Below, piece by piece: positions 2,957 to 52,406 of a DNA stretch of 64,000 nucleotides. Location: NCBI GenBank assembly GCA_002238805.1, contig MPNB01000002.1, positions 14,045 to 78,044 of the forward strand, given 5' to 3'. The position numbers and the translations under genes were made by a program. Each line of letters begins with the position of its first letter. Position 1 is the stretch's first letter. The notes beneath the pieces were generated by a model, which was not told where the DNA came from, did not search any database, and was given only the letters and a program-made list of their open reading frames with translations. The stretch is from Rhodothermaceae bacterium bin80 (GTDB lineage: Bacteria > Bacteroidota > Rhodothermia > Rhodothermales > Bin80).

Positions 2957-3011
<55 letters not shown>

Positions 3012-3030
<19 letters not shown>

Positions 3031-13109: not shown

Positions 13110-13414
13110 TCAGAACACAGCGAAGCTTACTGTGGTCAAGCCATCGTCATTGTGACTCGAAACTGAACTTTACCCAAGTTTGTCACGCGTAGCGATATAG
13201 AGAATACAGAACTCTCCTAATCCCACTTTGAGCATTTTTTCGGGGCTATGGATGTCGGAGATTTACCGGATATGTCTGTATCGATTCAAGGTAGTATTGC
13301 GGTCTGTTTTTCTCCTTCTCGCGGCCTATGCCGCCGTGATCTGGCCTACCCAGTTGCTTTCTGGCGCGATCTGATAATGATTCGGGATCCGAGGATCTCA
13401 GGTGCGACAGGGGA

Positions 13415-13666: not shown

Positions 13667-14068
13667 AATGCAGCTTGGACGGATTCAGGGCGTTGCAGGT
13701 TCCGCAGTGCGACCGCCAATTGTCCGAATATATAACAAAACCACGCTTCGCGGCTGAAATGAGCGGATCAGCTCTGGATTACAAAACATAATGCCTTTTA
13801 TGTCTCATCTCCAGAGACCGGACGCACCAAAATTATATATCCAGCGACTATTTCTGTGGCAGCTCCAAGATCACCGAACCCACTACTCATGCCATCCCCA
13901 CCACCTGACATCCGCCACTGAAGGAACTGCCTGGAAAGCACGCACGGCCCGATAGCCCTTCCGGGTTGCTCCTATCGGTCGCTCAAAACTTCCCCGCCAA
14001 TTCGTCGTCGACCAGAAACACCCGCTACCGAATTGAGTTGGCCAATTGTTTCAAATCAATCCTAATCA

Positions 14069-27423: not shown

Positions 27424-30400
27424 TTGATTTTCCCCGTGCCTACCCTTCGGTCATTTTGGCTCGTAATACTGCTCCTGTCGGCGGCTTGTAATCGGTCGCC
27501 GTCTGATCAATTCGCGCTGCCAGCAACGGTCGACTACAACTGGCATATCAAACCTGTACTTTCAGATCGCTGCTACAAATGCCACGGACCGGATGATCGG
27601 GCTCGCAAGGCAGAATTGCGGCTCGATACACAAGCAAATGCCTACGGAGTAAGTCGTGAAGATTCAACGCAGCGAATTATCATGCCCGGCAATGCCGCCG
27701 CAAGCCTCCTAGTTGAACATATCTCCAGTGAAGACCCCAAACGGCGTATGCCACCGCTGGAAAGTAATCTATCACTTACCACACGGGAAATTGCACTCAT
27801 AAAGCGCTGGATTGACCAAGGAGCAGACTGGAAACCACACTGGGCATTTACAACCCCCACGCGACCTACCCTGCCGGAGGTGCGTAATGAACGCTGGGTT
27901 CACAGCCCCATTGATCACTTCGTATTACGCAGAATCGAGTCTGCCGGGCTTACTCCATCAGATGAAGCAGACCGCGCTAAGCTACTTCGTCGTGTGACGT
28001 TCGATCTGACAGGACTGCCGCCAACTCCGACCGAGCTCAATGCCTTCCTGAATGATACGCAGGCAGGTGCTTACGAACGCGTAGTGGACGAGCTACTTGC
28101 ACGTCCGACCTACGGAGAACGTATGACCTCCATGTGGCTGGACTTAGCGCGTTACGCCGATACACATGGCTACCAGGATGATCGCCCACGAACAATGTGG
28201 CCATGGCGTGACTGGGTCGTACGGGCCTTTAATGAGAACCTTCCCTATGATGACTTCGTGGTTTGGCAGATTGCTGGCGATTTACTCCCCGAAGCCACCT
28301 TTGAGCAACGCTTGGCTACCGGGTTTAACCGAAACCATGCCATAACTCAGGAAGGAGGCGTAGTTGCGGAAGAATACTTGACAGAGTATGTCGCCGATCG
28401 AACTAATACAACGGCAACTGCCTTCCTGGGACTAACCATGGAGTGTGCACGATGCCATGACCATAAATATGATCCGATCCTGCAGGAAGAGTACTACAGC
28501 ATGTTCGCGTTCTTTAACGGCGTGAACGAACAAGCCCAGATCAATTACTTTGACCTCTCACCAAGGCCAGCCATCCGGCTTGAAGACCCTGAATTGGAAG
28601 CTTCCATTGCACAAACCGAGGCGGGAATCGATTCTCTTGAACAAGTAGTTGCAGGCTGGCCTCAAACGCCACCACCACCTGAGTGGACACCGGATCTTGC
28701 GACAACCATCGAATCCGGCCTTTTAACGTCCCTGCCTCTGGACAGCTTAGACGGTCTGGTTTCTCCCGCACGGGCGGGCCCGGATGGTTTAGCGAACACC
28801 GGACTGGAAAAAGTACTTGACCCTCCTCTGGTCACCAGAGGAAAGCACGGCAACGGACTAACCTTTGACGGGCAAAATTTTCTAAACCTCGGCCCGGATG
28901 CTGACTTCGAGTGGTACGACCGGTTCTCACTGAGCGCTTGGGTGCTCGCCCAGGACCAGCCAAAAGATATTGCACTGTTCTCCAAACGAAACGGTGAGCA
29001 AAAACGCGGCGGCTATGATCTCGCACGCACTAAAGAGGGTTCGCTCCGCCTCCGCCTAATACACGACGGAGACCATCAGATCTCTGTACAGACAACACGG
29101 TCGATTCCGGCAAATACGTGGACCCACGTCTCTGCTACCTACAACGGCAGTGGACGCGCACAAGGAATTGCTCTATATCTGAATGGTGTTTCAAGCCGCG
29201 TTCGGGTCAACGAAGACACGCTTGAGCGTGAAAGTATACTGAACGGAAACGGACTCCTGGCGGGCCATTGGACTCACCGCAATCGCACGATTGGTGATAT
29301 GGAAGGAGTCACAGATGGTATTCTGGACGGTCTCCATGTGCACGCTCGAGCACTCACGGACATGGAAGTCGCCCACCTGGCAGGGCAGACACCAGGCCCC
29401 CAGATAACAGCCCACTATCAAGCCTACCATGACCCCGGGCTAAACGCGGCTAATGCTACACTGGACAGCTTACGGCGTGCACTCAGGCGTGTGCCTAATG
29501 TCATGGTCATGGAAGAAATGCCTACGCCGCGCACTACGCATGTTCTGGATCGCGGCGCCTATGATGCACCTATGGATTCCGTGGGACCGGGGACCCCGAC
29601 AGCAATCCTGTCCTTTCCAGCCGATCTTCCACGTAACCGGCTTGGACTTGCACAGTGGATTGTGCACGAAGACAACCCACTCACCGCTCGCGTAGCTGTG
29701 AACCGCTTCTGGCAACTGCTCTTTGGAGAAGGATTGGTACATACACCGGAAGATTTTGGTAACCAGGGCGCACTACCCTCCCATCCAGCACTGCTTGATT
29801 ATCTGGCAACAAGATTCGTTGACCTGGATTATGATACTAAGGCGCTGATCAAAGAGATTGTCCTGTCTGCTACGTATCGTCAAAGCAGCCGGGTAACACG
29901 AACCCTTCGGGAACAGGATCCAAATAATGTGCTGTTAGCTCGTGCTCCGCGCAAGCGATTGTCCGCCGAAATGATGCGCGACAACGCGTTACTGGTCAGC
30001 GATCTGCTGAATCCGACGATTGGCGGCGAGCCGGTGCGACCCTATCAACCCGCAGGTCTTTGGAAAGCACTTGCGAATCAGATTGGGGAGAATCGCTATC
30101 GCCCCGGGCCGGATGTTCACAGGCGCAGCCTCTATACTTATTGGAAACGAACTATTCCCCCACCGGCAATGCTGACCTTCGACGCACCAGAGCGCTCGGT
30201 GTGCACAGTGGAGCGGCAAACTACGGCGACACCACTGCAATCCTTAGTACTTCTGAACGATCCCCAGTACGTGGAAGCAGCTCGTGCACTTGCCTCTCGC
30301 GTCCGTGCCAGCGAAGGAACAAGTCAACGGGAACAGATTGCGGAGGCCTTTCGCTGGCTTACCTCCAGATCACCCGAAGCGGGAGAACTCGACGCACTGA

Positions 30401-30573
30401 CTGACCTTCTGGACGAACAAACAAGTAAATTTGAGCAGAACCCAGCCGGTGCCCGCGCTCTGGTGTCGGTTGGAATAAGCCCACTCAGGCGTACCAGCGA
30501 CATTGTGCAACTGGCCGCCATGACTGTTGTAACTAGTACAATCCTGAACCTGGATGAAGCTCAATACCGATGA
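27424..30573 (+). CDS. PSCyt1 / PSCyt2(DUF1549) / LamG-like / PSD1(DUF1553) multidomain protein, predicted lipoprotein with two CxxCH motifs (large subunit, pair 1)
   Basis: 1049 aa; leader ...LLLSAAC; CYKCHGPD (nt 27571-27585) then RRMPPLE; [12 protein letters not shown]; [12 protein letters not shown]; [12 protein letters not shown]; LamG-like LTFDGQNF...FSLSAWV...[12 protein letters not shown]...LYLNG; C-terminal FDAPERSVC...[16 protein letters not shown] start is uncertain (GTG 27436 is an alternative). Confidence 0.85.
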
Positions 30574-32030
30574 GTGACCCTTTCTATGATGCCGGGTGTT
30601 GCATGAACCGCCGGCATTTCTTTTCAAAGCTAAGTCTTGGAATAGGCGGAGCAGCCCTCGCATCCCTGATGGGATGTGCACAAACATCCGATCAATTGGC
30701 TGTGGGCTCAGCCTTCCGAGGAATTCTGAACTCGCCTCATATTGCCCCCAAGGCGCGTCGGGTGATTTATCTCTTCCAGAGCGGTGGACCTTCCCAACTT
30801 GAACTCTTTGACTATAAGCCCACGCTGCATCATAGAAGAGGTCAGGATCTGCCGGAATCCATCCGGATGGGACAGCGCCTGACCGGCATGACCGCCTATC
30901 AGAACTCGCTGCCCCTAGCACCTACCATTTATCCGTTTGCACAGCACGGCAACAGCGGTGCATGGATCAGTGATCTGTTGCCGTACACCGCCAAGATTGC
31001 CGATGAACTCTGCATTGTACGGTCTATGTACACCGAGGCAATCAATCATGACCCGGCCATTACCTTCTTTCAAACCGGCTCACAGCAACCCGGTCGCCCC
31101 AGTATGGGAGCCTGGCTGAGTTATGGTCTGGGCAGCTCGAACGAGGACCTGCCTACTTTCTGTGTACTCTTGTCCCGTGGGCTCCAGCGCCCACAACCTA
31201 TCTATTCACGTCTATGGGGTAACGGATTTCTGGCAGCTCTGCATCAGGGAGTACAGTTTCGTGCAGGAGGGGATCCAGTTTTATACCTGAATAACCCGCC
31301 CGGACTGAATGCCAGTGACCGGCGCAGTATGCTCAAACACTTGGCCCGTCTGAACGAAATGCATTACGACGTGAGTGGAGATCCAGAAGTCCGGTCACGC
31401 ATTGCCCAATACGAAATGGCCTACCGGATGCAAACTTCTGTGCCCGATGTAACCGACCTGTCGGACGAGCCCGAAGCGACGTTCGAGCTCTACGGAGAAG
31501 CTGCGCGCACACCAGGGACTTATGCAGCCAACTGTCTCTTGGCGCGCCGCCTTGCTGAGCGGGATGTGCGTTTTATTCAACTCTACCATATGGGTTGGGA
31601 TCAGCACGGCAACCTGCCGCACGACATTGCACTGCAATGCAAGGATACCGACCAACCGTCCGCAGCACTGGTCACCGACCTGAAACAAAGAGGGCTACTG
31701 AACGACACGCTGGTCATCTGGGGTGGCGAATTCGGCCGTACAAATTATTCGCAGGGCACACTCACAGAAACGAACTACGGACGAGACCACCATCCGCGAT
31801 GCTTCACCATCTGGATGGCCGGAGGCGGTGTCAAACCTGGCCTTACTTACGGAGCCACCGATGAACTGGGATACAACATCACACAGAATCCCGTCCATGT
31901 ACACGACTTCCAGGCAACAGTCCTTCACTTGCTGGGCATTGAACATGAACGGCTCACGTATCGTCATCAGGGGCGCCGGTATAGACTAACAGATGTGCAT
32001 GGCCATGTGGTTAAGGATCTCTTGGCCTGA
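30570..32030 (+). CDS. DUF1501 family protein (sulfatase/alkaline-phosphatase-like fold) with twin-arginine signal (small subunit, pair 1)
   Basis: 486 aa; Tat leader [23 protein letters not shown]; [14 protein letters not shown]; [11 protein letters not shown]; GRDHHPRCF; [13 protein letters not shown]; ATGA overlap with the upstream stop. Confidence 0.85.
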
Positions 32031-35000
32031 AATCATCGGCGCTGTAGTTTGCATAACGCTGCTCATTACAGCCGGATGCGGGGGCGAACTACGTCCACAG
32101 GATGCGGCCTTGCAGGAAGTCGTCGACTACAACTTCCATATCCGACCGATCCTTTCGGACCGCTGTTATGCCTGCCATGGTCCTGACGCCAACGCGCGGC
32201 AGGCCGACCTGCGCTTGGATGAGGAGGCCGGGGCAAAGCGAGAACGCCTTGCTTCCGGTGGACATGCTATTGTACCGGGGAGTCTCAGAAAGAGTCGTCT
32301 GTATTCGCGTATTCGCTCCGATGACCCGGAGGTACGCATGCCCCCACTGGAATCAAACCTCTCGCTGTCTGACCACGAAATTGCACTCATCGGCCGATGG
32401 ATTGAGCAGGGAGCTGAATGGAAACCACATTGGAGCTTCCTGCCGGCCGCAGATTTACCCCTGCCGGTTGTTCAGCAATCGGATTGGCCGAACAACGGAA
32501 TTGACTACTTTACGCTGTCGCGTCTCGAGTCGAAAGGACTGACTCCCGCTCCAGAGGCAGACCCGGGCACGCTCCTTCGACGGGTCACACTCGACTTAAC
32601 CGGTCTCCCCCCAACACTGGACGAACTGGACCTTTTTCTTGCGGATACATCTGCCCATGCCTACGAAACGGTTGTAGATCGGCTGCTTAACTCAGCAGCT
32701 TATGGAGAGCATATGGCCTCTATGTGGCTTGACATCGCCAGATACGCGGACACGCATGGGTATCAAAATGATCGAGACCGGTACGTGTGGCCGTGGAGAG
32801 ACTGGGTCGTGGAAGCCTATAATCAGAATCTTCCCTTTGATGAGTTCGGGACCTGGCAGCTTGCGGGGGACCTACTGCCGAATGCAACGCTGAATCAACG
32901 ACTGGCTACCACCTTCAACCGTAACCACCGACAAACCAACGAAGGGGGCAGTATCGAAGAAGAGTTCCGTACAGAGTACGTGGCTGATCGCGTTAATACG
33001 GTGGGGGCGGCTTTCATGGGCCTAACCCTCGAGTGCGCACGCTGCCACGATCACAAATACGATCCGATCACGCAAGCCAACTACTATGGGCTCTTTAGCT
33101 TTTTTAACAATGTGGATGAGTCCGGACAGACTTCGCATTTTACAAATGCGGTGCCCGTACCCGCGCTGGATCTGCCTACGCCTGACAAGCGGGAGGAGCT
33201 GGATCGCCTTGCACGAGAGATCGAAGCAGCTGAGCGTGCGGTTAGTGATCTAGCCGAAGTGTCAAGGAACAGTTTTGCCTCTTGGGATCAACCACTACCA
33301 CCAGATACCGATCCGAAGCCCATTCTCGCCTGCGAGTTTGAGCGTCTGAGCGGACAAACGTTACAGTGCAATGATGGCATACAGGGGACTGTCGTCTTCA
33401 CTCCAGATGTGGTGCCTGGCCACCGGGGCCAGGCAATGGCTTTTGATGGTGAGAGTGGTTTCTCTTTTGCAGGTATGGGCGAGTTCCGGCGAACACAACC
33501 CTTTGCAGTCAGCCTCTGGATCAATCCGGGAGAAGATACAGGCGCTATCGTACATCGCACACAAGCTGCACTTGATGCTGGAAGCCGCGGCTGGGAGCTT
33601 GCACTCCTGGACGGTCACCTTGTCGCCCAACTGGCCCATATGTGGCCCGAAAATGCCTTGCGCATCAAAACAATCGACACCCTCCCGCTTGGAGATTGGA
33701 CTCACGTAGCTATGACCTACGATGGATCCAGCCGCGCCTCCGGTGTACGCCTGTACGTCAATGGCCTCCTTACCAAGGTAGAAACAGTTCGTGATGGTCT
33801 TACCCGACACATCACGTACGAAAATATGAATGTACCCCTGCAAATCGCATACCGATTCCGCGATAGCGGTCTGCGCAACGGAGCTGTTGATGAGCTGCGC
33901 CTGTACGATCGGATGCTCTATGGATTTGAGGTTGCACACCTGGCGGAGAAAAAGGATGTGGTCCCGGATAGAGACGACCTTTTTCAATGGTATCTAGCAC
34001 ATGAGGTGATGCCTTGGCAGCGCGCACAGGCTGTCCTCCAAACTCTGCGCGAGAAAGAGAACACACTCCTCGAAGATATCCCGGCAATCATGGTCACCGA
34101 GGAGATGTCCTCCCCGCGACCAGCATACATATTGAACCGCGGTCAGTACGATGCAAAGGGGGATCCCGTTGAAGCACACACACCGGAAGCCATCCTGCGT
34201 TTACCCGATGATCTACCACGAAACCGCCTCGGTTTGGCTAGGTGGCTGTTTCATCCAGAGCACCCACTTACTGCCCGGGTTGCAGTGAACCGGTACTGGC
34301 AAAAGTACTTCGGAACTGGCATTGTGTCAACTCCTGAAGATTTTGGACGCCAGGGAGCCTTACCATCCTTCCCTGAACTGCTGGACTATCTGGCCACGAC
34401 ATTCGTTGACTCGGGATGGAACATCAAGGCTATGCAGCGCCTGATCTTAACGAGCGCCACCTACCGCCAGCAATCTGAAGCTACCCCTGAACTCCTGGGC
34501 CTTGATCCTGATAATACGTTGTTCGCACGAGGCCCTCGACTTCGCCTGAGTGCAGAGATGGTGCGCGACCAGGCACTTGCAGTCAGTGGACTTCTTGACC
34601 GAACACTCGGTGGACCCGCAGTTAAACCGTACCAGCCGAAAGGGCTCTGGCAGGAAAAAGCCGGTATCCGATATGAGCAGGGTTCAGGTCCTGACCTCTA
34701 CAGACGCACATTATATACATTCTTCAAGCGTACTTCTCCGCCTCCTTCCCTGATCACGTTTGACATGCCAACACGTGCACAATGTGTGATGCGTCGTCAG
34801 CGTACGGCTACCCCTATGCAGGCCCTGGTTCTGCTCAATGATCCACAGTACGTGGAAGCAGCCCGTCATATAGCTGCCCGTATGCTCGGAATGGAGACGC
34901 TTGAAGATCAAATTGCGCTGGGCTTCAGACTGTTGACAGGACGCAACCCGGACTCGCCCGAAACGGAAGCATTGAAGACACTGTATACTGAACAGTTTGA

Positions 35001-36512
35001 AGCATTTTCTACGGAACCCGAAGCAGCAAGACAATTGCTGAAGACCGGTGAGTCTCAACTGCAAGTGGGACTGAGTTCCATTGAATGGGCCGCACATACA
35101 ATGGTCGCCAATGCATTGTTATCTTTTGATGAGGCTATTGAGAAGTACTGATGCATGAGTGTTGTAATTATAATCCTCTCAGCACTCGCAGGGAATTTCT
35201 GGGGCGCCTTGGCATGGGGCTGGGTGGGCTCGCGCTGTCTTCGCTCGTGAACCCGGCCCTGGCCGATGGGCCAGATTTAATCCCGCGCGCTAAACGTATC
35301 ATTTATCTGTTCCAGAGCGGCGGACCTTCGCAGTTCGAGTTGTTCGACTATAAGCCGCGGGTTAACGCCATGCACGGGCAGGAACTGCCGGAATCTGTCC
35401 GCAAGGGACAGCGGCTTACCGGCATGACTGGCTTCCAGAACACGTTGCCCCTGGCCCGCTCACACTTTTCTTTTGCTCAACATGGGGAGAGTGGAACCTG
35501 GGTGAGCGAATTGATGCCGCATACTGCAGGGATTGTGGATGAATTATGCTTCGTGAAATCCATGCATACCGAAGCGATCAATCATGATCCGGCGATTACA
35601 TTCTTTCTTACGGGATCACAGATCGCGGGTCGGCCATCATTCGGATCATGGCTCAGCTACGGACTCGGAACAGAAAACGATAACCTGCCTGCATTTTGTG
35701 TGCTCATCACCAAAGACAAGGGAGGACAACCACTCTATGCCCGACTTTGGGGGAATGGGTTCCTGCCATCGCAACACCAGGGAGTGCAGTTCAGAAGCGG
35801 AATGGATCCCGTGCTTTATCTGAACAACCCTGATGGCGTCTCTTCAAAACAACGACGAATGCAACTTGACCGCCTTCGGGAGTTGCATCAACTGAAAGAA
35901 GGCGCGCCCGGATGGGAGCGTATTGAGTCACGGATATCTCAGTACGAAATGGCCTATCGTATGCAAACCTCTGTGCCCGATGTGATGGACCTTTCCAATG
36001 AGCCGGATTATATCTTTGATCTCTACGGCGAAGATGCCCGGGAGCCCGGCACCTTTGCCGCCAACTGTCTTTTGGCCCGGCGCTTAGCTGAGCGGGGTGT
36101 ACGCTTTATCCAGCTCTTCCATCAGGGATGGGATCATCATGGGGGACTGCCATCCGGTATTCAAGTCCAGTCAAGGGAAACCGACCAGCCCTCGGCTGCA
36201 CTCGTGCGGGACCTCAAACAGCGGGGCATGCTGGACGATACCCTGGTCATCTGGGGCGGAGAGTTTGGGCGTACCAATTACTGCCAGGGACGCCTTACAG
36301 ATGTAGATTACGGCCGTGATCACCATCCACGATGTTTTACACTGTGGATGGCGGGTGGAGGCATGCGATCCGGTTTCAGCTATGGCGAGACGGATGATCT
36401 TGGCTATAATGTAGTTCGCGACCCGGTGCATGTTCATGATTTGCAAGCAACCCTGATGCATCTGCTTGGAATTGATCATGAGCGACTTACCTTTAGATAT
36501 CAGGGCCGCCGA
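31980..36512 (+). repeat. tandem segmental duplication, copy A (about 4.53 kb: large subunit + DUF1501)
   Basis: ATAGACTAACAGATGTGCATGGCCATGTGGTTAAGGATCTC occurs at 31981 and 36514 (offset 4533); both following gene pairs are colinear. Confidence 0.95.
31993..35151 (+). CDS. PSCyt1 / PSCyt2(DUF1549) / LamG-like / PSD1(DUF1553) protein, predicted lipoprotein (large subunit, pair 2)
   Basis: 1052 aa; leader ...[10 protein letters not shown]; CYACHGPD...VRMPPLE; [12 protein letters not shown]; [12 protein letters not shown]; LamG-like MAFDGESGF...FAVSLWI...[12 protein letters not shown]...LYVNG; FDMPTRAQC...[13 protein letters not shown]. Start (ATG 31993/31999/32005) lies inside the 3' end of the preceding DUF1501 gene. 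Confidence 0.85.
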
Positions 36513-36563
36513 TATAGACTAACAGATGTGCATGGCCATGTGGTTAAGGATCTCCTGGCCTGA
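35151..36563 (+). CDS. DUF1501 family protein with twin-arginine signal (small subunit, pair 2)
   Basis: 470 aa; STRREFLGRLGMGLGGLALSSLV; SGGPSQFELFDYKP; GRDHHPRCF; VHDLQATLMHLLG; TGATG stop/start overlap. Confidence 0.85.
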   Translation: MHECCNYNPLSTRREFLGRLGMGLGGLALSSLVNPALADGPDLIPRAKRIIYLFQSGGPSQFELFDYKPRVNAMHGQELPESVRKGQRLTGMTGFQNTLPLARSHFSFAQHGESGTWVSELMPHTAGIVDELCFVKSMHTEAINHDPAITFFLTGSQIAGRPSFGSWLSYGLGTENDNLPAFCVLITKDKGGQPLYARLWGNGFLPSQHQGVQFRSGMDPVLYLNNPDGVSSKQRRMQLDRLRELHQLKEGAPGWERIESRISQYEMAYRMQTSVPDVMDLSNEPDYIFDLYGEDAREPGTFAANCLLARRLAERGVRFIQLFHQGWDHHGGLPSGIQVQSRETDQPSAALVRDLKQRGMLDDTLVIWGGEFGRTNYCQGRLTDVDYGRDHHPRCFTLWMAGGGMRSGFSYGETDDLGYNVVRDPVHVHDLQATLMHLLGIDHERLTFRYQGRRYRLTDVHGHVVKDLLA

Positions 36564-39500
36564 AATCATCCCTTTTGCGGTTTGCATAACCCTGCTTATG
36601 ACAGCCGGGTGCGGGAGCGAACTGCATCCACGGGATGCAACGTTGCCGGAAGTAGTTGACTACAATTATCATGTCCGGCCGATCCTTTCGGACCGCTGTT
36701 ACGCCTGCCATGGTCCTGATGCCAACGCACGGCAGGCCGGCCTGCGTCTGGATGAGGAGGCTGGGGCAAAGCAGCAGCGTCTCGCTTCCGGTGGATATGC
36801 TGTCGTACCGGGAAGCCTCAGAAAGAGCCGGCTGCATTTCCGTATTCACTCCGATGATCCAGAGGTGCGCATGCCCCCGCTGGAATCGAATCTTTCGCTA
36901 TCTGACCACGAAATTGCACTCCTCAGCCGCTGGATTGAGCAGGGAGCCGAATGGAAGCCACACTGGAGCTTCCTGCCGGCTGCCGATCTACCGCTGCCGG
37001 CCGTCCAACAATCAGATTGGCCAAACAACGGAATTGACCACTTTACGCTCGCACGTCTTGAGTCGGAAGGGCTGACCCCGGCTCAAGAGGCAGATCCAGG
37101 TACGCTCCTTCGACGCGTTACACTTGACCTAACTGGCCTTCCCCCGACGTTGGAGGAACTAGACGCTTTTCGTGCAGATACCTCTGTTCATGCCTATGAA
37201 AAGTCTGTTGATCGGCTGCTTGACTCCCCTGCTTATGGAGAGCACATGGCTTCTATGTGGCTGGATATCGCTAGATTCGCGGACACAGATGGATATCAGA
37301 TTGATGGGGATCGGTACGTGTGGCCGTGGAGAGACTGGGTCGTTGAAGCCTACAACCAGAACTTGCCCTTTGATAAGTTCGCAACCTGGCAGCTTGCGGG
37401 AGACCTGCTGCCAAATGCAACGCTGAACCAACGGCTGGCGACCACCTTCAACCGTAACCATCGCCAGACTAACGAAGGGGGCATTATTGAAGAAGAGTTA
37501 CGCACGGAATATGTGGCGGATCGCGTCAATACGATGGGGGCGGCATTCATGGGCCTGACCCTTGAATGTGCACGCTGCCACGATCACAAGTACGATCCGA
37601 TTACGCAAGCCAACTACTATGGGCTCTTCAGTTTTTTTAACAATGTGGATGAGTCCGGGCAGATTTCACCGTATGCAGTGCCCGTGCCCGCACTGGATCT
37701 GCCTACGCCGGATGATCAGGAGGAACTGGATCGTCTCGCACATGAGATTGAATCAGCCGAGCGTGCAGTTGGCAATATAGCGGAAATGTCAAGGCTGGGC
37801 TTTACTTCCCGGTACCCTTCATTACCGCCGGATACCGACCCCAGACCCATTCTTGCCTGCGAGTTTGAACGCCTGAACGGACCAACATTACCATGCCATG
37901 ATGGCAAACAGGGGACAGCCGTCTTCACCCCAGATATAGTGCCTGGGTACCAGGGGCGGGCAATGGCCTTTGACGGTCAGAGCGGTTTCTCCTTCGCAGA
38001 TATGGGTGAATTCCGGCGAACACAACCCTTCACCGTAAGTCTCTGGATCAATCCGGGAGAAGATACAGGTGCCATCGTGCATCGCACGCTGGCTGCACTG
38101 CCTGTCGGGAGCCGCGGCTGGGAGCTTGTACTCCTGGATGGTCGCCTCGTGGCGCAACTGGCCCATATGTGGCCCCAAAATGCCTTGCGCATCCAAACAA
38201 TTGATACCCTCCCGCTCGGAGAATGGGCGCATGTAGCCATGACCTACGATGGATCTAGCCGCGCCTCCGGTGTGCGCCTGTACCTCAATGGACTCCTCGC
38301 CGATGTAGAAACCGTTCGTGATGGTCTTACCCGACATATCACGTACGAAAGTATTAAGGTCCCCCTGCAAATCGCATACCGACACGAAGAGAGCGGCCTG
38401 CGCAACGGAGCTGTTGATGAATTGCGCCTGTACGATCAGAGGCTGTACGGCTTTGAGGTTGCGCGCCTGGCAGGGAGAACAGAAGCGACCCCGGATCGAC
38501 ACGATCTTTTTCAATGGTATCTGGCACATGAGGTGATGCCTTGGCAGCGCGCACAGGCTGCCCTCCAGACCCTGCGCGAACAGGAGAACACCCTCCTTGA
38601 AGGTATCCCGGCAATCATGGTCACTGAGGAGATGTCCTCCGCACGACCAGCGTACATATTGAACCGTGGCCTGTACGACGCAAAGGGGGAGCACGTTGAA
38701 CCGCACACACCAGATGCCATCCTGCCTTTCCCCGATGGTGCACCTCAAAACCGACTCGGTTTGGCCAGATGGCTCTTTCATCCAGAGCATCCTCTTACTG
38801 CCCGGGTTGCAGTGAATCGGTATTGGCAGAAGTACTTTGGAACCGGCATTGTCTCCACACCTGAAGATTTTGGACGACAGGGCGCCTTGCCCTCCTTCCC
38901 TGAACTGCTGGATTATCTGGCCACGACATTCGTTAACTCGGGATGGGACATCAAAGCTATGCAGCGCCTGATCGTGACGAGTGCCACCTATCGCCAGCAA
39001 TCTGAAGCTACCCCTGAACTTCTGGATCTTGACCCCGACAATAAGTTGTTCGCACGAGGCCCCAGACTTCGCCTGAGTGCAGAGATGGTGCGCGATCAGG
39101 CACTTGCAGTCAGTGGACTTCTCGACCGAACGCTTGGTGGACCTGCAGTTAAACCGTATCAACCAGGAGGACTCTGGCAGGAAAAGTCCGGGATCAGGTA
39201 TGAGCAGGGCTCGGGCTCCGACCTTTATCGGCGCACACTATACACCTTCTTCAAGCGCACTTCCCCGCCTCCTTCCCTGATCACGTTTGACATGCCAACA
39301 CGTGCACAATGTGTGATGCGGCGTCAGCGTACGGCGACCCCTATGCAGGCCCTGGTTCTGCTCAATGACCCGCAGTATGTCGAAGCATCCCGTCATATAG
39401 CCGCCCGCATGCTCGGAATGGAAACACTTGAAGATCAAATTGCGTTGGGATTTAGACTGTTAACCGGACGAAGTCCAGATCCATCCGAAACGAAAGCATT

Positions 39501-41035
39501 GCAATCACTATACACCGAACAGCTTGAGGAATTTTCCAAGGATCCCGAAGCGGCTAGACAGCTATTGGAAACCGGGGAGTCTCAACTGCAAGCGGGACTG
39601 AGCCCCGTTGAATGGGCTGCACATACCATGGTTGCCAATGCATTATTATCCTTTGATGAAGTTATTGAGAAATACTGATGCATGCGTGTGGTAATTATGA
39701 TCCTCTCAGCACTCGCAGGGAGTTTCTGGGGCGTCTTGGCATGGGGCTGGGCGGGCTCGCGTTGTCCTCGCTAGTAAATCCGGCCCTGGCCACTGGGACG
39801 GATTTGATCCCGCGCGCAAAGCGTATTATTTATTTGTTCCAGAGCGGTGGCCCCTCGCAGTTTGAACTATTCGACTATAAGCCACAGGTTAATGCCATGC
39901 ACGGGCAGGAGCTGCCCGAATCCGTCCGCAAAGGACAGCGGCTTACCGGCATGACAGGCTTCCAGAACACGTTGCCCCTGGCCCGCTCACACTTTTCTTT
40001 TGGTCAACATGGGGAGAGCGGAACCTGGGTGAGCGAATTGATGCCGCATACTGCAGGGATTGTGGATGAATTATGCTTCGTGAAATCCATGCATACCGAA
40101 GCAATCAATCATGATCCGGCGATTACATTCTTTCTTACGGGATCACAGATCGCGGGTCGGCCATCATTCGGATCATGGCTCAGCTACGGACTCGGAACAG
40201 AAAACGATAACCTGCCTGCATTTTGCGTGCTCATTACTAAAGACAAGGGGGGCCAGCCACTCTATGCCCGACTCTGGGGGAATGGGTTTCTCCCATCCCA
40301 GCACCAGGGAGTGCAGTTCAGAAGCGGCATGGATCCTGTACTTTACCTAGGCAATCCTGATGGTGTCTCTTCAAAACAACGACGAATGCAGCTCGACCGC
40401 CTTCGGGAATTGCATCAGTTGAAAGAAGGAGCGCCCGGATGGGAGCGCATTGAGTCACGGATCGCTCAGTACGAAATGGCCTATCGTATGCAGACATCTG
40501 TACCCGATGTTATGGACCTTTCCAATGAACCGGACTATATCTTTGATCTTTACGGCGAAGATGCCCGGGAACCCGGTACCTTTGCCGCCAACTGTCTTTT
40601 GGCCCGGCGTCTGGCAGAACGGGGCGTACGCTTTATCCAGCTCTTCCATCAGGGATGGGATCATCACGGAGGACTGCCATCCGGCATTAGAGTCCAGTCA
40701 GGGGAAACCGATCAACCCTCGGCTGCACTTGTGCAGGACCTCAAACAACGGGGTATGCTTGACGATACCTTAGTCATTTGGGGTGGAGAGTTTGGGCGCA
40801 CTAATTACTGCCAGGGACGCCTTACAGATGTGGATTACGGTCGTGATCATCATCCTAGATGTTTCACACTCTGGATGGCTGGTGGAGGTTTACGCTCCGG
40901 TTTCAGCTACGGTGAGACTGATGATCTTGGCTATAATGTAGTTCGCGATCCGGTGCATGTGCATGATTTGCAAGCAACCCTGATGCATCTCCTAGGAATT
41001 GATCATGAGCGGCTTACCTTCAAGTATCAGGGCCG
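36513..41035 (+). repeat. tandem segmental duplication, copy B
   Basis: Colinear with copy A; high identity ends after CAGGGCCG at about 41035, inside the 3' end of the third DUF1501 gene. Confidence 0.95.
36526..39678 (+). CDS. PSCyt1 / PSCyt2(DUF1549) / LamG-like / PSD1(DUF1553) protein, predicted lipoprotein (large subunit, pair 3; duplicate of pair 2)
   Basis: 1050 aa, colinear with 31993..35151 and sharing all its motif boxes; leader ...[10 protein letters not shown]. Confidence 0.85.
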
Positions 41036-41090
41036 TCGTTACCGCCTTACGGATGTACACGGCACCGTCGTAAAACCTCTGATAGCATGA
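39678..41090 (+). CDS. DUF1501 family protein with twin-arginine signal (small subunit, pair 3; duplicate of pair 2)
   Basis: 470 aa, differs from 35151..36563 at only about 15-20 residues by eye, including the last about 10 residues. Confidence 0.85.
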   Translation: MHACGNYDPLSTRREFLGRLGMGLGGLALSSLVNPALATGTDLIPRAKRIIYLFQSGGPSQFELFDYKPQVNAMHGQELPESVRKGQRLTGMTGFQNTLPLARSHFSFGQHGESGTWVSELMPHTAGIVDELCFVKSMHTEAINHDPAITFFLTGSQIAGRPSFGSWLSYGLGTENDNLPAFCVLITKDKGGQPLYARLWGNGFLPSQHQGVQFRSGMDPVLYLGNPDGVSSKQRRMQLDRLRELHQLKEGAPGWERIESRIAQYEMAYRMQTSVPDVMDLSNEPDYIFDLYGEDAREPGTFAANCLLARRLAERGVRFIQLFHQGWDHHGGLPSGIRVQSGETDQPSAALVQDLKQRGMLDDTLVIWGGEFGRTNYCQGRLTDVDYGRDHHPRCFTLWMAGGGLRSGFSYGETDDLGYNVVRDPVHVHDLQATLMHLLGIDHERLTFKYQGRRYRLTDVHGTVVKPLIA

Positions 41091-43555
41091 ACCGCTTCAT
41101 TACCGGGTACATTCTGATTGCAGCTGCCATGTTAATGTTCGTCGGCTGTAGCCGTGCTCCAGAGGTTAGTTTTAATGAGCAGATTCGCCCTATACTGAAC
41201 GAGCGGTGCGTGAATTGTCATGGGGGCATCCGCCGCCAAGGGGACCTAAGCTTGCTCTTCCGGCACGAAGCACTTGCCGCAGCAGAATCGGGCGAACGTG
41301 CTGTCGTACCTCTTAAGCCCGCCGAAAGCGAACTGCTGCGACGCGTTTCACATACGGACCCGAAACACCGGATGCCTCAGGATGATGACCCGCTCACACC
41401 CGAGCAAATCCAAACCCTGCACACTTGGATTGCAGAAGGCGCACAATGGGAGGATCACTGGGCTTACGTTACCCCCGAGCGACCCGCATTACCGGGTGTA
41501 TCTGATCCCGCATGGCCGAGTGAGCCACTAGATCACTTTATACTCTCACGTCTGGATGAGGAAGGGCTGTCACCCTCCCCCGAAGCAGAATGCCCAGTGC
41601 TCGTCCGGAGAGTCACACTGGATCTGGTTGGCCTGCCCCCCAAACCGGAAGACGTGAGACAAATCTGTGTAGACGGAGGATCCTACGAGACCTACGTAGA
41701 CTCGCTGCAGGCCTCCCCCACATACGGAGAACGCTGGGCAGCCATGTGGCTGGACTTGGCAAGATATGCTGACTCCAAGGGATATGAGAAAGATATAGGC
41801 CGGACTATTTGGCGTTATCGGGATTGGGTCATCCAGGCCTTAAACGATGATCTGCCATTCGATCAGTTCACGATTGAACAGTTAGCAGGGGATCTTCTGC
41901 CGAATGCAACTGAAAGCCAGCGTATAGCTACAGCTTTTAACCGCAACACCATGACCAACACGGAAGGAGGAACTGACGATGAAGAATTTCGTGTTGCAGC
42001 AGTCATTGATCGCGTGAATACAACCTGGGAGGTATGGCAGGGAACCTCATTCGCCTGTGTTCAGTGCCACGGCCACCCATATGACCCATTCACCCACGAG
42101 GAGTACTACGAATTCTTTACCTTCTTCAACAGCACCGCCGATCGAGATCTGGACAGCGAGTACCCAACCCTCCCGTTGTTTGAGGAAGAGGTTGCCGATG
42201 AAGGAAGTGAGCTCATAGAGGATATTGCGCAACTGGAAGAAGACATCATTGCCCGCGTACGCTCTCATGCTCTGGCTGAAGAGCGACGTGCATGGGAAAC
42301 CACTCTGGACCAACCTGAAATCATTGGCCGCGTCCGACTTATGCTTCAAAACGAAGTCAAGCGGGTTGTGGCCACTCCGGAAGAACAGCGGGGGGATGGT
42401 CAACAACGGACTCTGGACCATATTTACGCCAGTGTCAGTGATGATCCTCAACTTGAGCGTCTGCGTTCTGAAAAAGTAGAAAAGGAGCAGGTACTGCGGA
42501 CATTAAACGCAGTCCATACACCCATCATGCAGGAGCTCCCCTTCCGGCGACGTACGCATGTGTTTGAGCGAGGGAGCTTCCTACTGAAAGGGGAACCGGT
42601 TGAACCCAACACACCCAATGCATTACCTCCTATGCCGGAGGATGCACCCCGTAACCGTCTGGGAATGGCGCGATGGCTGGTTAGCCGTGAAAATCCGCTC
42701 ACTGCACGGGTAACGGTAAATCGATTCTGGGAGCAGCTCTTTGGGATTGGCCTCATCGAATCGCTGGAAGATTTTGGGACTCAGGGGCTTGAGCGCTCCC
42801 ATCCAGACCTGCTGGACTACTTGGCCGTCAGCTTTATGGAGGATCACTCCTGGAGCGTCAAATCATTCCTGCGTTCTGTGGTGATTTCTTCAACGTATAG
42901 GCAGTCCTCACGCGTGACCGGTGAACTGGAAGCCAAAGATCCTCGCAACCGGCTATTGGCCCGGGGCGCCCGTTTCCGTCTGAGTGCAGAGCAGATTCGG
43001 GACCAAGCACTCTATGTGAGCGGGCTGCTAAGTCCTGCAATGTTCGGTCCAAGTGTAATGCCACCTCAACCAGAAGGGCTCTGGAATAACCCTTACGACG
43101 CCCGCCGGTGGCAAACCAGTCAAGGGAATGATCGGTACAGGCGCGGAATTTATACGTACTGGCGGCGCACTGTACCGTACCCGTCTATGGCGACATTTGA
43201 CAGCCCCAGCCGTGAGTTCTGCGTATCTCGAAGGATAAGAACCAACACGCCCCTGCAGGCCTTGGTTTCGCTGAATGATCCTGTATTTATTGAGGCAGCA
43301 CAAGCATTGGCCCAACGCATGCTTGATTCCGAAAATCCTCTTGAAGCGGGATATACGTACGCCATAGGAGTAGCACCAGACGAGAAGGTTCTCGACACAC
43401 TCGGGTCCCTATATAACGACGCCATGACCCACTATACGGAACACGATGACGATGTCACTACATTAACCGGAGACCAGGGATCTGCTGAATTGGCGGGCTT
43501 AACCGTTGTCGCTAATGCGATCCTTAATCTCGATCAGTTCATTATGAAAGAGTAA
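41087..43555 (+). CDS. PSCyt1 / PSCyt2(DUF1549) / PSD1(DUF1553) protein without LamG insert, predicted lipoprotein (large subunit, pair 4)
   Basis: 822 aa; leader ...AAMLMFVGC; CVNCHGG...HRMPQ; RRVTLDLVGLPP; ARYADSKGYEKD; ACVQCHGHPYDP; FDSPSREFC...TNTPLQALVSLND; acidic helical linker where pairs 1-3 carry the LamG-like domain. Confidence 0.85.
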   Translation: MNRFITGYILIAAAMLMFVGCSRAPEVSFNEQIRPILNERCVNCHGGIRRQGDLSLLFRHEALAAAESGERAVVPLKPAESELLRRVSHTDPKHRMPQDDDPLTPEQIQTLHTWIAEGAQWEDHWAYVTPERPALPGVSDPAWPSEPLDHFILSRLDEEGLSPSPEAECPVLVRRVTLDLVGLPPKPEDVRQICVDGGSYETYVDSLQASPTYGERWAAMWLDLARYADSKGYEKDIGRTIWRYRDWVIQALNDDLPFDQFTIEQLAGDLLPNATESQRIATAFNRNTMTNTEGGTDDEEFRVAAVIDRVNTTWEVWQGTSFACVQCHGHPYDPFTHEEYYEFFTFFNSTADRDLDSEYPTLPLFEEEVADEGSELIEDIAQLEEDIIARVRSHALAEERRAWETTLDQPEIIGRVRLMLQNEVKRVVATPEEQRGDGQQRTLDHIYASVSDDPQLERLRSEKVEKEQVLRTLNAVHTPIMQELPFRRRTHVFERGSFLLKGEPVEPNTPNALPPMPEDAPRNRLGMARWLVSRENPLTARVTVNRFWEQLFGIGLIESLEDFGTQGLERSHPDLLDYLAVSFMEDHSWSVKSFLRSVVISSTYRQSSRVTGELEAKDPRNRLLARGARFRLSAEQIRDQALYVSGLLSPAMFGPSVMPPQPEGLWNNPYDARRWQTSQGNDRYRRGIYTYWRRTVPYPSMATFDSPSREFCVSRRIRTNTPLQALVSLNDPVFIEAAQALAQRMLDSENPLEAGYTYAIGVAPDEKVLDTLGSLYNDAMTHYTEHDDDVTTLTGDQGSAELAGLTVVANAILNLDQFIMKE

Positions 43556-43654: not shown

Positions 43655-45118
43655 ATGAGTCTTGCTAAAGAAGCCCAACACGCATATCTGGGGCACGTTA
43701 CGCGTCGCCACTTCCTGAAGTCCGCGGGTGCCGGACTCGGAGCTATGGCTTTTGCCTCACTTGGTGCAGTCGGAGCAGCTGACCCGACCGGCTCTCCCGA
43801 TCCGTTGGCACCGCTCAAACCACATTTTGCACCACGTGCTAAACGTGTGATCTTTTTGCATATGGCCGGCGGTCCCTCTCCATTGGAGTTATTTGACTAC
43901 AAGCCCACACTCGCGCGGCTGCATGGCCAGGACTGTCCCGAATCGCTCCTGGAAGGCAAGCGCTTCGCATTCATCCGGGGCGTACCAAAAATGTTGGGAC
44001 CACAGGCCACTTTCCGTCAGCACGGAGAGTCGGGCGCCTGGATCTCGGATCATCTACCGCACCTAGGGCGTGTCGCTGATAAGATTGCCTTCCTCAAGGC
44101 CATGCGCACTGATGAATTCAACCATGCTCCAGCACAACTATTAGTCCATTCAGGGAGCCCCCGGCTTGGCCGCCCGAGCATGGGGTCCTGGGTGACTTAT
44201 GGGCTTGGTACTGAGAACGCGAACCTGCCTGCATTTGTCGTGCTGCTTTCCGGAGGAGCTGCACCGGACGCGGGAGCCAGTGTGTATGGAAGTGGCTTTC
44301 TGCCCACAGTTTACCAAGGTGTGCAGTGCAGAACCAAAGGGGATCCGGTCTTGTTTTTGGGCGACCCGGAGGGTGTGCCGCGTAACCTGCGGCGTAAATC
44401 CATTGATGCCATTAATACGATCAACCAGCAACAGTACGAGGAAATTGGTGATCCCGAAATTCTCACACGCATTGCGCAGTATGAAATGGCTTTCCGCATG
44501 CAGACCTCTGTACCGGAAGCCATGGATATCAGCCGTGAGCCTGCCTACATACATGAGCTGTACGGCACCGCTCCCGGCGAAACGGCATTCAGTAATAACT
44601 GCCTTCTCGCACGAAGGCTGGTGGAACGGGGCGTTCGCTTCGTTCAGTTGTTTCACTGGGGCTGGGACTCGCACGGTGCGGGAGAAAGTGAGGCCCTGAA
44701 CGGGGGCTTCCTGGAGCGCTGCCGCGAAACTGATCGCCCGGTTACTGCACTCCTGGAAGATCTGGAACAGCGCGGTCTGCTTGAAGAAACCCTGGTGATC
44801 TGGGGTGGAGAATTTGGGCGAACGCCAATGCTGGAAAACCGCTCGGGTACAGACAATCCCTTTGTCGGCCGGGATCATCACAGCGACGCCTATACGATGT
44901 GGATGGCCGGTGGCGGGGTTAAGGGCGGCATCACACATGGTGAAACAGACGAAATCGGATATAGCGCCGTGAGCGGTCAGGTACATGTCCACGACCTGCA
45001 AGCCACGATCCTGCATCTGCTTGGGTTTGATCACCTGCGACTAACTTATCCCTTCCAAGGCCGAGATTTTCGCTTAACCGATGTGCACGGACATGTTGTG
45101 CACCAAGTCTTGGCATAA
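43655..45118 (+). CDS. DUF1501 family protein with twin-arginine signal (small subunit, pair 4)
   Basis: 487 aa; VTRRHFLKSAGAGLGAMAFASLG; [14 protein letters not shown]; GRDHHSDAY; VHDLQATILHLLG. Confidence 0.85.
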   Translation: MSLAKEAQHAYLGHVTRRHFLKSAGAGLGAMAFASLGAVGAADPTGSPDPLAPLKPHFAPRAKRVIFLHMAGGPSPLELFDYKPTLARLHGQDCPESLLEGKRFAFIRGVPKMLGPQATFRQHGESGAWISDHLPHLGRVADKIAFLKAMRTDEFNHAPAQLLVHSGSPRLGRPSMGSWVTYGLGTENANLPAFVVLLSGGAAPDAGASVYGSGFLPTVYQGVQCRTKGDPVLFLGDPEGVPRNLRRKSIDAINTINQQQYEEIGDPEILTRIAQYEMAFRMQTSVPEAMDISREPAYIHELYGTAPGETAFSNNCLLARRLVERGVRFVQLFHWGWDSHGAGESEALNGGFLERCRETDRPVTALLEDLEQRGLLEETLVIWGGEFGRTPMLENRSGTDNPFVGRDHHSDAYTMWMAGGGVKGGITHGETDEIGYSAVSGQVHVHDLQATILHLLGFDHLRLTYPFQGRDFRLTDVHGHVVHQVLA

Positions 45119-45139: not shown

Positions 45140-46651
45140 ATGAAGCAATCCGTGTTTTGGCTGTGTGCAGGCCTCGCCTTTCTGGCGGTTATGCTGATAA
45201 TGGTACCGGGTTCTGGCCGACCAAGTGACTTTAGCCTGTTCCTGGGACGATTCCACCCGGTCGTTGTGCATCTACCGATTGGGATCCTAGTGGTCGCTAC
45301 CCTGCTTGAGTGTCTTTCACGCAGGTCTGCCTGGCGGGGACGGTATGATACAGGGATTCTGGCACTCCTGTATATTGGCGTCTGGAGCTCTATCCTAGCC
45401 GTCATTGTCGGCCTGTACCTGGCCCAAGGTGGCGGCTATGCCGCCAGTCAACTGGCTTGGCATAAGCGCATGGGCATTCTGGTCGTCCTGTTTGCTTCGC
45501 TGGCCTACCTGTACAAAGCCTGGCCGGGCCTCTCTGAACGCTGGCTTAAGCACTGGGAACGTCGTGTGTACGGTATATCGTTAGGCCTACTGCTGTTGGT
45601 GGTTGCACTTGCCGGACATCTGGGTAGTACGCTGACACATGGCCCGGATTACTTATCCCGCTATATGCCTGATGGCTTGCGCCAGATTGCGGGACTATCC
45701 AAAAAAGCCGATATCGGACGACTCCAGTTGGATAATCCTGCTGAAACTACCACGTATACAGCGCTGATTGCCCCCATCCTAGAATCCAGGTGTGTCTCGT
45801 GTCATGGTGCTGACGCCCAACGGGGTGGACTGCGTTTGGATACCCCCGAATTTATCAGCGAGGGAGGAGATGATGGACCACCCATTATCGCTGGTCGCGC
45901 GCATGAGAGTGAGCTTATTCACCGCGTGTGGCTACCGCTCAGTTCGGACGATCATATGCCACCTGTCGAGAGCCCACAGCTGTCAGTGGCGGAAGCCGAG
46001 CTGCTGAGATGGTGGATTGACTCAGGAGCCTCTTTTGAGGAACTCCTTCCCGACGCTGAATGGTCACCCGTTGTTCAAACTATTGTGGACGGTATGGGAC
46101 TGGACGAAATTCGGACCGGAATCTTTGCACTGGATACCGGTCTGCCGGATTCTATGGACATAGTTGCACTCGCTAACCTAGGATTATCAGTAACCCCCCT
46201 GGCTGAAGATGAACCCTACCTGCAGGTGCGCTGCATGGACCTGGAAGCATGCACCGGCACGAGTGAGTTGCGCGGAGCTCTATCACGCCTCGCCCCCAAT
46301 ATCGCATGGCTTGATCTTGGACGCTCCCAGGCTGGAGACGATCTGGTGGCGGTGATCGCAGATCTGCCACATGTGACGCGCCTACATCTACAGCAAACTT
46401 CGGTTACAGATGACGGATTGGCGCATCTGAGCGACTTGGAGTTTCTGGAGTATCTAAACCTTTATGGTACAGCAGTGTCCGATTCGGGACTGATCCATCT
46501 TGAACAATTACCCGAGCTGAAGTCACTCTATCTCTGGCAAACAAATACCACCGAGGCAGGGGTAGAGCGTTTGCAATCTGCCGTGCCTGAACTATACATC
46601 AATACCGGTCTAAGCCTGAACCCAATCGAACCCGACAGTACTGACATATGA
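45140..46651 (+). CDS. polytopic membrane protein with PSCyt1 (CxxCH) domain and C-terminal leucine-rich repeats
   Basis: 503 aa; about 5 N-terminal TM helices including FHPVVVHLPIGILVVATLLE; CVSCHGADAQRGGLRLD...DHMPPVE...LLRWWIDSGA; LRR-like VTRLHLQQTSVTDDGLAHLSDLEFLEYLNLYGTAVSDSGLIHLEQLPELKSLYLWQT. Confidence 0.75.
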   Translation: MKQSVFWLCAGLAFLAVMLIMVPGSGRPSDFSLFLGRFHPVVVHLPIGILVVATLLECLSRRSAWRGRYDTGILALLYIGVWSSILAVIVGLYLAQGGGYAASQLAWHKRMGILVVLFASLAYLYKAWPGLSERWLKHWERRVYGISLGLLLLVVALAGHLGSTLTHGPDYLSRYMPDGLRQIAGLSKKADIGRLQLDNPAETTTYTALIAPILESRCVSCHGADAQRGGLRLDTPEFISEGGDDGPPIIAGRAHESELIHRVWLPLSSDDHMPPVESPQLSVAEAELLRWWIDSGASFEELLPDAEWSPVVQTIVDGMGLDEIRTGIFALDTGLPDSMDIVALANLGLSVTPLAEDEPYLQVRCMDLEACTGTSELRGALSRLAPNIAWLDLGRSQAGDDLVAVIADLPHVTRLHLQQTSVTDDGLAHLSDLEFLEYLNLYGTAVSDSGLIHLEQLPELKSLYLWQTNTTEAGVERLQSAVPELYINTGLSLNPIEPDSTDI

Positions 46652-48411: not shown

Positions 48412-48420
48412 CCCTGCTGT

Positions 48421-50817: not shown

Positions 50818-50821
50818 GACT

Positions 50822-51973: not shown

Positions 51974-52406
51974 CACACGCGACAGGTCCCAGTGTACAGC
52001 ATCTTATCTCGCGACCCGGAGTTGCTGCACCTCAATCTGACTCAATGCGAGGTACCAACCCCCGGAAGCAACCGGCTGGCAACTCGACATCTATCACCCC
52101 GTCGCGCCTGATTCGAGTCCATCTCGGACTGATGATCCGTCAGTTCAGGCATAGACAAAATGCGTCTGATGTACCGTGCGCAACTTCGCTCCGCAGCTCG
52201 CTGATCCGCTTCGTTGCGCGCCCCCTCCATCGAAATTATTAACTTAAATTCTAATTTCGCTGAACATCGGCCGAGGTCACATCCCGTACAGGCACAGCCT
52301 TTCTGAGGCTTCTAACTTGACGAGCAAGTAGTAATTTTTCGGCGGAATACACGCTGATGAACAACTGGCCAGCCCGGTGGTAACGGAATAGCAACCGCCG
52401 ACCGTC

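Follow-up and report, generated by a model that had tools for sequence, protein, structure and literature searches.

An old tandem duplication and probable later recombination in an array of DUF1501 and PSCyt/PSD gene pairs from an uncultured Rhodothermales bacterium

The 64,000-nt stretch of DNA analysed here (hereafter the window; positions 14,045 to 78,044 of contig MPNB01000002.1, Rhodothermaceae bacterium bin80) comes from an uncultured Rhodothermales bacterium and carries four consecutive gene pairs, all on the forward strand, each made up of a large PSCyt/PSD gene and a DUF1501 gene, as recognized from the list of open reading frames (ORFs) and from Pfam matches. With a probability that we put at roughly 0.7, this array owes its present form to one old illegitimate crossover and to later recombination within and between lineages. 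In what follows, B denotes the large PSCyt/PSD genes, D the DUF1501 genes, D* the ancestral downstream DUF1501 gene and W the window, while L-numbers designate related loci. The sequences show the anatomy of the array, its duplication junction, the single-copy state of outgroups, the divergence of the copies and the selection acting on them, the significance of a near-identical tract and a block common to diverged lineages; from these we infer the molecular mechanism of each exchange and the order of events. A single microhomology-based crossover would have joined the 3′ end of D1 to that of D* at a TA shared by their YQGRRY codons; it would have copied a complete large gene together with its start, while every DUF1501 gene kept an intact frame of 470 codons. 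Ectopic gene conversion is the simplest way in which a 293-nt tract of D2 and D3 would then have become homogenised. Close relatives would have lost a unit through D2–D3 crossovers, another lineage would have deleted D2, and a 3.26-kb block with B3 would have been swapped between lineages, its left edge falling in the dual-coding stretch at the junction.

The two repeat units lie head to tail and are 86.6% identical, 607 of the 4533 aligned positions being different. Comparison of the window with itself by BLAST gave one long match, with a period of 4533. A preliminary description of this DNA had proposed a tandem duplication of ~4.53 kb; the duplication is real, but the second unit is only 4527 nt long. 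B3 lacks two codons (6 nt) relative to B2, and the offset between the copies therefore drops from 4533 at the junction to 4527 in the D genes. The BLAST match reaches back to position 31394, since D1 is an older paralogue of about 70% identity. The flanks are unique: upstream of 31979 the similarity to D1 amounts to only ~65–70%, and beyond 41038 there is no homology.

The breakpoint is recorded in the middle DUF1501 gene. Along its body, D2 is 85–100% identical to D3 and only ~65% identical to D1; in its last 52 nt the relationship flips, with 100% identity to D1 over 42 nt and 61.5% identity to D3, which ends differently (...TVVKPLIA). The parental similarity switches once, within the 2-nt TA, in agreement with the earlier proposal that the breakpoints lie in DUF1501 3′ ends and that the middle gene is a chimera with the body of the third gene and the tail of the first. 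This TA is located inside the conserved YQGRRY motif, and the surrounding context matches at 12 of 15 positions (CAGGG.CG.CG.TAT). The same junction is found in W, L163, L003 and L175, and its identity in several lineages therefore points to one duplication event. In L164 the body of D2 is deleted, and only the D1-type side of the junction is readable.

A 41-nt string occurs exactly twice in the window, at 31981 and at 36514 (offset 4533), and, as the preliminary description had it, forms the 3′ end of D1 and D2 and, in another frame, the start of B2 and B3. The overlap between D1 and B2 lies within a 40-nt block that is invariant in the D1 and D2 tails of lineages 12–15% diverged from one another, and the B start codon falls within the last 26–38 nt of the preceding D gene, also in outgroups. 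As the breakpoint is situated just upstream of the B start, the duplication copies a complete B gene and all D frames stay intact. The identity of the two 41-nt copies might be taken as the sign of a recent event. This was rejected, since the string is invariant across diverged lineages and a 42-nt identical run is unexceptional in an alignment of 86.6% identity, where the longest run averages 48 nt over permutations. Judging from these comparisons of sequence, the 41-nt repeat reflects conservation of a dual-coding overlap between stop and start. At position 32030, the D1 stop codon reads TGA in the window and in the ENA and JGI contigs and TGG in the NCBI copy GCA_026713585.1, in which D1 is called with 527 aa and B2 with 978 aa; either a polymorphism or an error in the consensus would explain the difference.

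The polarity of the duplication follows from copy number in relatives. At the syntenic locus, L004, L005, L006, L007 and L167 carry B1–D1, one B*–D* pair with a D3-type tail, and B4–D4. The first four are more distant Rhodothermales (76–86% identity in D), and L167 is a circular 2.66-Mb contig (74% identity in B). The presence of a single pair in these outgroups implies that the ancestral state was one of three pairs; D1 and D3 are the parental genes and D2 the chimera, the polarity that had been proposed at the outset. Closer relatives vary in unit number. L163, a 3.6-Mb contig that is ~86–88% identical to the window in the flanks, matches it in having all four pairs. In L165, which shows 97% identity to the window, one unit is present, and its D gene changes once from D2-like to D3-like sequence (interval in Table 1). 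L171, a 2.84-Mb contig of the window's clade, also has one unit, composed of a D2-like 5′ part, the near-identical tract and a D3-like 3′ body, the switch being placed between 35476 and 35492, inside that tract. In L172–L174, one of which is a circular 3.55-Mb contig, a B gene is followed by a 36-codon D remnant and then by a B–D pair. All these variants in copy number and structure among close relatives are explained by recombination between DUF1501 paralogues.

Several smaller observations concern these relatives. The 36-codon remnant of D2 is located at 13153–13263 in L164 and at 9922–10032 in L172–L174; through a deletion of ~1.3 kb, D codon ~19 has come to adjoin the junction, which leaves two large genes with one DUF1501 gene. 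A similar arrangement is suggested by two NCBI accessions with consecutive numbers, MXW84165 and MXW84166. Over 35375–36575, W and L165 differ by 5 mismatches in ~1.2 kb of D2, on a background of ~2.7%, which suggests recent sharing of this segment among strains. The closest matches in genome collections are metagenome-assembled genomes of Rhodothermales/Rhodothermaceae. Clustered at 90%, the B3-like sequences number 73 and the D2-like ones 44. A scan of metagenome contigs with B3 retrieved only relatives of at most 48% identity, the scan being saturated by the conserved CHDHKYDP pattern.

Table 1. Positions, in window coordinates, of the genes of the array and of the features connected with its duplication and recombination.
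Feature	Position	Strand	Description
B1	27424..30573	+	PSCyt1/PSCyt2/Laminin_G_3/PSD1, first pair of the array (Pfam)
D1	30570..32030	+	DUF1501; its last 52 nt gave the tail of the chimeric D2
B2	31993..35151	+	First copy of the duplicated large gene; lipoprotein-like signal, two CxxCH motifs
D2	35151..36563	+	Chimeric DUF1501: D3/D*-type body, D1-type last 17 codons, twin-arginine (Tat)-like RREFL signal
B3	36526..39678	+	Second copy of the large gene, 86.6% aa identity to B2
D3	39678..41090	+	DUF1501 with ancestral D*-type tail retained
B4	41087..43555	+	PSCyt1/PSCyt2/PSD1, without Laminin_G_3; unique right flank of the duplication
D4	43655..45118	+	DUF1501, partner of B4, fourth pair
Repeat unit 1	31979..36511	+	4533 nt: D1 tail, B2, D2 body
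Repeat unit 2	36512..41038	+	4527 nt: D1-type tail in D2, B3, D3 body
Duplication junction	36513..36514	+	TA common to both parents, flanked by the last base of D*-type (36512) and the first of D1-type (36515)
Dual-coding overlap, D1 3′ end / B2 start	31993..32030	+	
Dual-coding overlap, D2 3′ end / B3 start	36526..36563	+	
Near-identical tract, D2 copy	35406..35698	+	4 mismatches to 39933-40225
Near-identical tract, D3 copy	39933..40225	+	
L165 crossover interval in D2	36368..36383	+	Removed one unit; partner interval 40895-40910
Inter-lineage block	36514..39774	+	98.5% identical to L163 (flanks ~86-90%), ~99.8% to L175

The duplication is not brand new, as had already been suspected. Synonymous divergence (dS) is 0.61 between B2 and B3 and 0.50 between D2 and D3; nonsynonymous divergence (dN) is 0.070 and 0.022, and omega 0.115 and 0.044, respectively. 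Both copies are under purifying selection, and the CxxCH and signal motifs are intact in each of them. D2 and D3 are 96% identical. Between B2 and B3, identity is lowest in the two linkers that flank Laminin_G_3 (73% and 77%), and reaches 86% in Laminin_G_3 itself and 94% in PSD1. Since the copies differ most around this carbohydrate-binding-type domain, the B2–D2 and B3–D3 pairs probably serve related but distinct substrates.

The patchy identity between the copies, which had been noticed by eye, is real. On a background of 80–92% identity per 100 nt, one 293-nt tract common to D2 and D3 contains 4 mismatches where ~39 would be expected; the earlier hand counts were accurate to within one or two, with 3 mismatches in 35461–35697 (counted as ~4) and 34 in 35151–35415 (counted as ~35). 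A 122-nt exact run at 35577–35698 is the longest run common to both units. No permutation matched the tract, either at a window size of 280 nt (0 of 5000) or in the length of the longest identical run (0 of 20000). Among the codons of the tract that encode the same amino acid in both copies and can change synonymously, 3 of 91 differ as compared with 27.4 expected (binomial P = 7e-11), a deficit that was not matched in a scan by any of 20000 permutations.

Two causes had been suggested for this mosaic, gene conversion between the copies or unusually strong constraint at the nucleotide level. Recombination is upheld. Constraint, as might stem from an RNA embedded in the tract, a regulatory site or a gene that overlaps it, is extremely unlikely. 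The local shortage of synonymous differences between D2 and D3 is the sole observation in its favour, and the same tract has diverged normally elsewhere: it is only 88–91% identical between orthologues, 93% identical between the two copies of L163 and 57–78% identical between D1 and D2. Moreover, it has no Rfam match, its folding energy equals that of shuffled sequences (z = −0.04), and no alternative-frame ORF of at least 100 aa overlaps it. The distribution of informative quartet sites changes along the D genes. Inside the tract, all of them unite the two window copies (9:0:0). In the 3′ body of D, the grouping of D2 of the window with D2 of L163 has a weak lead (14 vs 6 vs 9). For the 5′ part, it is D2 of L163 and D3 of the window that group most often (7 vs 2 vs 4). 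The decisive counts are those of the B gene, given below. Both copies of the tract are of the type carried by the single-copy loci L165 and L171. The contig of JGI 3300002151 has an N at 40103 (equivalent to 35576), one of the four mismatch sites, which suggests a read-level ambiguity or a polymorphism.

A further departure from the background concerns B3. Between W and L163, identity is 85.9% in B1, 89.9% in D1, 87.4% in B4 and 91.7% in D4, but 98.5% between B3 and the second L163 copy. The limits of the block involved were obtained from a two-rate change-point fit; on its left side, the last mismatch is at 36512, the junction itself, and the next one at 36627. Alleles of the B3 type that are 96–98.5% identical are also present in L003 and L164, and L175 has one that is ~99.8% identical. 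Identity to each of the other copies is ~85% for B2 of the window; B3 reaches 89–92% with the first copies found in L163 and L164. In quartets with L163, 96 informative sites group its first copy with B3, 42 group it with B2, and 34 unite B2 and B3; with the first copy of L164 the corresponding comparison gives 114 vs 38 vs 21 informative sites, B3 again grouping with L164. It follows from these quartets and identities that B3 is not a simple in-place descendant of B2. On this sequence evidence, the B3 block appears to have been exchanged between lineages that are otherwise 12–15% diverged, and most of the patchiness is owed to such exchange and to the gain and loss of copies, with conversion between resident copies as only one contributor.

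The simplest conceivable history would be one in which the B2–D2 and B3–D3 pairs arose by duplication in this lineage and diverged in place, with one conversion tract. Such a history would account for units arranged head to tail, a chimeric D2, a background identity that is uniform at ~85%, the statistically significant tract and the single-copy outgroups. It is nevertheless highly improbable, because the 98.5% identity of B3 to the second L163 copy contrasts with ~86% in the flanks, because the 96 sites that B3 shares with the first L163 copy, as compared with 34 shared with its own B2, are derived, and because B2 is equally distant from all other copies. In addition, the junction is common to other lineages, and one unit is present in L165 and L171, relatives of 97% identity. 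The preliminary description is right as regards tandem duplication; it did not capture that the second copy is not simply a diverged daughter of the first, B3 grouping with the L163/L164 clade.

Recombination within and between lineages, as proposed above, may have proceeded along two courses, and the data fit both. We lean towards the first, in which the duplication would have taken place before the two clades separated. Cycles of unequal crossover would have homogenised the units of the L163/L164 clade; in the lineage of the window, the B3 block would later have been replaced by the widespread allele, and the tract would result from ectopic conversion between D2 and D3; L171 and L165 would be deletion derivatives. 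This course explains without coincidence both the presence of the tract on either side of the second unit and the position of the L171 switch inside the tract. Alternatively, the duplication may have arisen in the other clade, the whole unit (35699–39932) being imported into an L171-like single-copy gene and L165 resulting from a later deletion. Import of this kind would require fewer events overall; however, it calls for an extra conversion whose boundary coincides with the import crossover. Under both courses it is recombination, and not constraint, that makes the mosaic.

A number of points weigh against the proposed explanation of the array. Distances and quartets fit an old shared duplication and whole-unit import alike. 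Of the four differences between the tract copies, three fall at positions where L165 and L171 differ too; the tract might have been re-imported from the population as an allele of the resident clade, and not converted between the resident copies. Function is drawn only from domains and neighbouring genes. The sequence of the window comes from short-read metagenome assemblies, and positions 1–21413 of L175 are of the window type (2–5% diverged) from B1 to the end of B3 and of the L163 type (10–14% diverged) from D3 on; L175 is accordingly either an assembly join of two species through the shared B3 or a real recombinant, and shows that genomes can be switched at this locus in one of these ways. 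Within L175, identity between D2 and D3 is 100% over the stretch that corresponds to window positions 36001–36200.

The quality of the assembly bears directly on a further alternative, according to which the array is itself a chimera: the real genome would have a single pair, like L171, and a loop consisting of the 3′ part of D2, B3 and the 5′ part of D3, derived from a co-occurring species, would have been threaded through the tract. Traversal of such a loop would give two copies of the tract of the L165/L171 type, and both are indeed 98–99% identical to it. The JGI contigs L166, L170 and L177, from other samples, break at the 122-nt exact run or form 4.6-kb loops there, with terminal repeats of 76–101 nt; the N of the JGI contig falls on a tract mismatch site; L175 resembles a join of two species through B3; and single-copy and double-copy lineages come from sibling samples. 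We still regard a chimera as unlikely. A contig built with k = 141 cannot cross between genomes over an exact run of 122 nt, and 141-mers link the tract to diverged sequence on both sides. The same path was obtained with two assemblers and from several samples, and the tract copies differ at four sites. The segments 35699–36511 and 39775–39932 match no sampled genome of a second species above 91–95%. L165 has a D2-type 3′ body in a single-copy context, the exact product of a crossover between D2 and D3 in an array of the window type, and in the left half of L175 a window-type D2 is set in another strain background. A chimera of L171-type and L163-type genomes only was judged unlikely as well, parts of D2 and D3 matching neither.

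Collapse or expansion of a repeat, an artefact against which the preliminary description had warned, is ruled out by the 13% divergence of the copies, their dS of 0.5–0.6 and the recurrence of the structure in the JGI, MEGAHIT and 3.6-Mb L163 contigs. The window is identical to the ENA MEGAHIT contig k141_224436, and differs by one base from the NCBI assembly GCA_026713585.1 and by one N from the JGI contig. L163, L167 and L171–L174 are presumably long-read contigs, given the style of their names.

All of B1–B4 possess PSCyt1, PSCyt2 and PSD1, while Laminin_G_3 is present in B1–B3 only (Pfam, E-values from 1e-12 to 1e-101). D1–D4 each match PF07394 over its full length (positions 1–390 of 390, E-values from 1e-154 to 1e-161). 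Pairs of DUF1501 with PSCyt1/PSCyt2/(Laminin_G_3)/PSD1 proteins are known from Planctomycetes, Verrucomicrobia, Lentisphaerae and a few Bacteroidetes; these modules have many paralogues per genome, are often found near sulfatases, and are of unknown function (Kamneva et al. 2012, PMC3542564; He et al. 2017, PMC5615132). The array of the window resembles them in domain architecture, in the adjacent DUF1501 gene with a twin-arginine-type signal, in the CxxCH motifs, in the optional carbohydrate-binding-type Laminin_G_3, in the many paralogues and in the nearby sulfatases. It is unlike them in forming a syntenic tandem array of Rhodothermales, with three pairs and an added fourth, and in that the start of the large gene is embedded in the 3′ end of the DUF1501 gene before it. 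Furthermore, the two papers treat duplication at the phylogenetic level only, whereas here one junction and its recombination history are followed to the nucleotide. The array offers a nucleotide-resolved case of how the very large PSCyt/PSD and DUF1501 paralogue families grow and shuffle. A literature search for DUF1501 jointly with DUF1553 found no paper on that combination.

Concerted evolution by ectopic conversion and unequal crossing-over is familiar from duplicated bacterial genes such as tufA/tufB and the rRNA operons. The array is comparable in that a short tract has been homogenised, synonymous sites included, and in that copies are gained or lost by crossovers between paralogues. 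It differs in that homogenisation is partial, affecting 293 nt of 4.5 kb, and in that the copies are 13% diverged and probably differ in function. Population genomics also knows gene-specific sweeps and the homologous exchange of DNA among diverged bacterial populations that occur together. The 3.26-kb block resembles such cases in being 98–99.8% identical between lineages while the flanks differ by 12–15%, with a phylogeny that conflicts with that of the flanks; it is distinct in that the block is one member of a tandem array, and in that its left boundary coincides with an old duplication junction. Duplication at microhomology, ectopic conversion, gain and loss by unequal crossover and exchange between populations are all established processes, and the array represents ordinary evolution of a paralogue array, with no new mechanism or element.

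It may be speculated, as a rather unlikely extension of this explanation, that the large-gene block would behave as an exchangeable cassette, with the dual-coding stretches and the conserved DUF1501 sequence serving as fixed recombination anchors. The basis for such a view is the occurrence of B3 at 96–99.8% identity in at least four lineages. If it were true, co-occurring Rhodothermaceae species that are 12–15% diverged would swap, add and drop whole substrate-recognition variants, and the array would be a shared pool of selectable variants and not a set of ordinary, vertically evolving paralogues. On the practical side, the array carries a warning: in metagenome assemblies, such arrays give loop contigs, breaks at exact repeats and possibly joins of two species, and copy number and linkage therefore need long reads.

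Downstream of the array lie genes for a DUF2231/PSCyt1 membrane protein, a sulfatase and a TonB-dependent receptor. The wider neighbourhood (45140–54383 and 3726–5138) comprises the DUF2231 and PSCyt1 protein, two sulfatases, the TonB-dependent receptor, a DUF4249 protein and a leucine-rich-repeat protein with a Por_Secre_tail (type IX secretion) signal. This gene content resembles that of a polysaccharide-utilisation locus and would fit a role in the use of sulfated glycans.

A few details of individual genes may be added. B1 is an older paralogue, with ~49% aa identity to B2 and B3. Gene callers place the start of B2 at 32005, and B3, which has 1050 aa from the start used here, is called in a 1046-aa form from a later ATG. 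The stop codon of D3 overlaps the start of B4 (ATGA). By inspection of motifs, B2 and B3 both contain CYACH and CARCH (CxxCH, haem-binding-type), as well as a lipobox-like sequence (LLITAGC in B2, LLMTAGC in B3), and D2 and D3 share STRREFLGRLG, a twin-arginine-type signal. A sequence search detected no relative of DUF1501 in the PDB. B4 or B1 is broken into two or three ORFs in some relatives (L167, 14562–17029; L174, 14562–17029; L173, 2160–5344), which may reflect pseudogenisation of array members. A 424-aa ORF on the antisense strand of B3 (37888–39162, minus strand, in the codon-aligned frame) was dismissed as a product of chance, the same frame having 7 stops in B2 and 1 in L163. Outside the array, a tRNA gene at 2957–3030 is the only Rfam match in the window.

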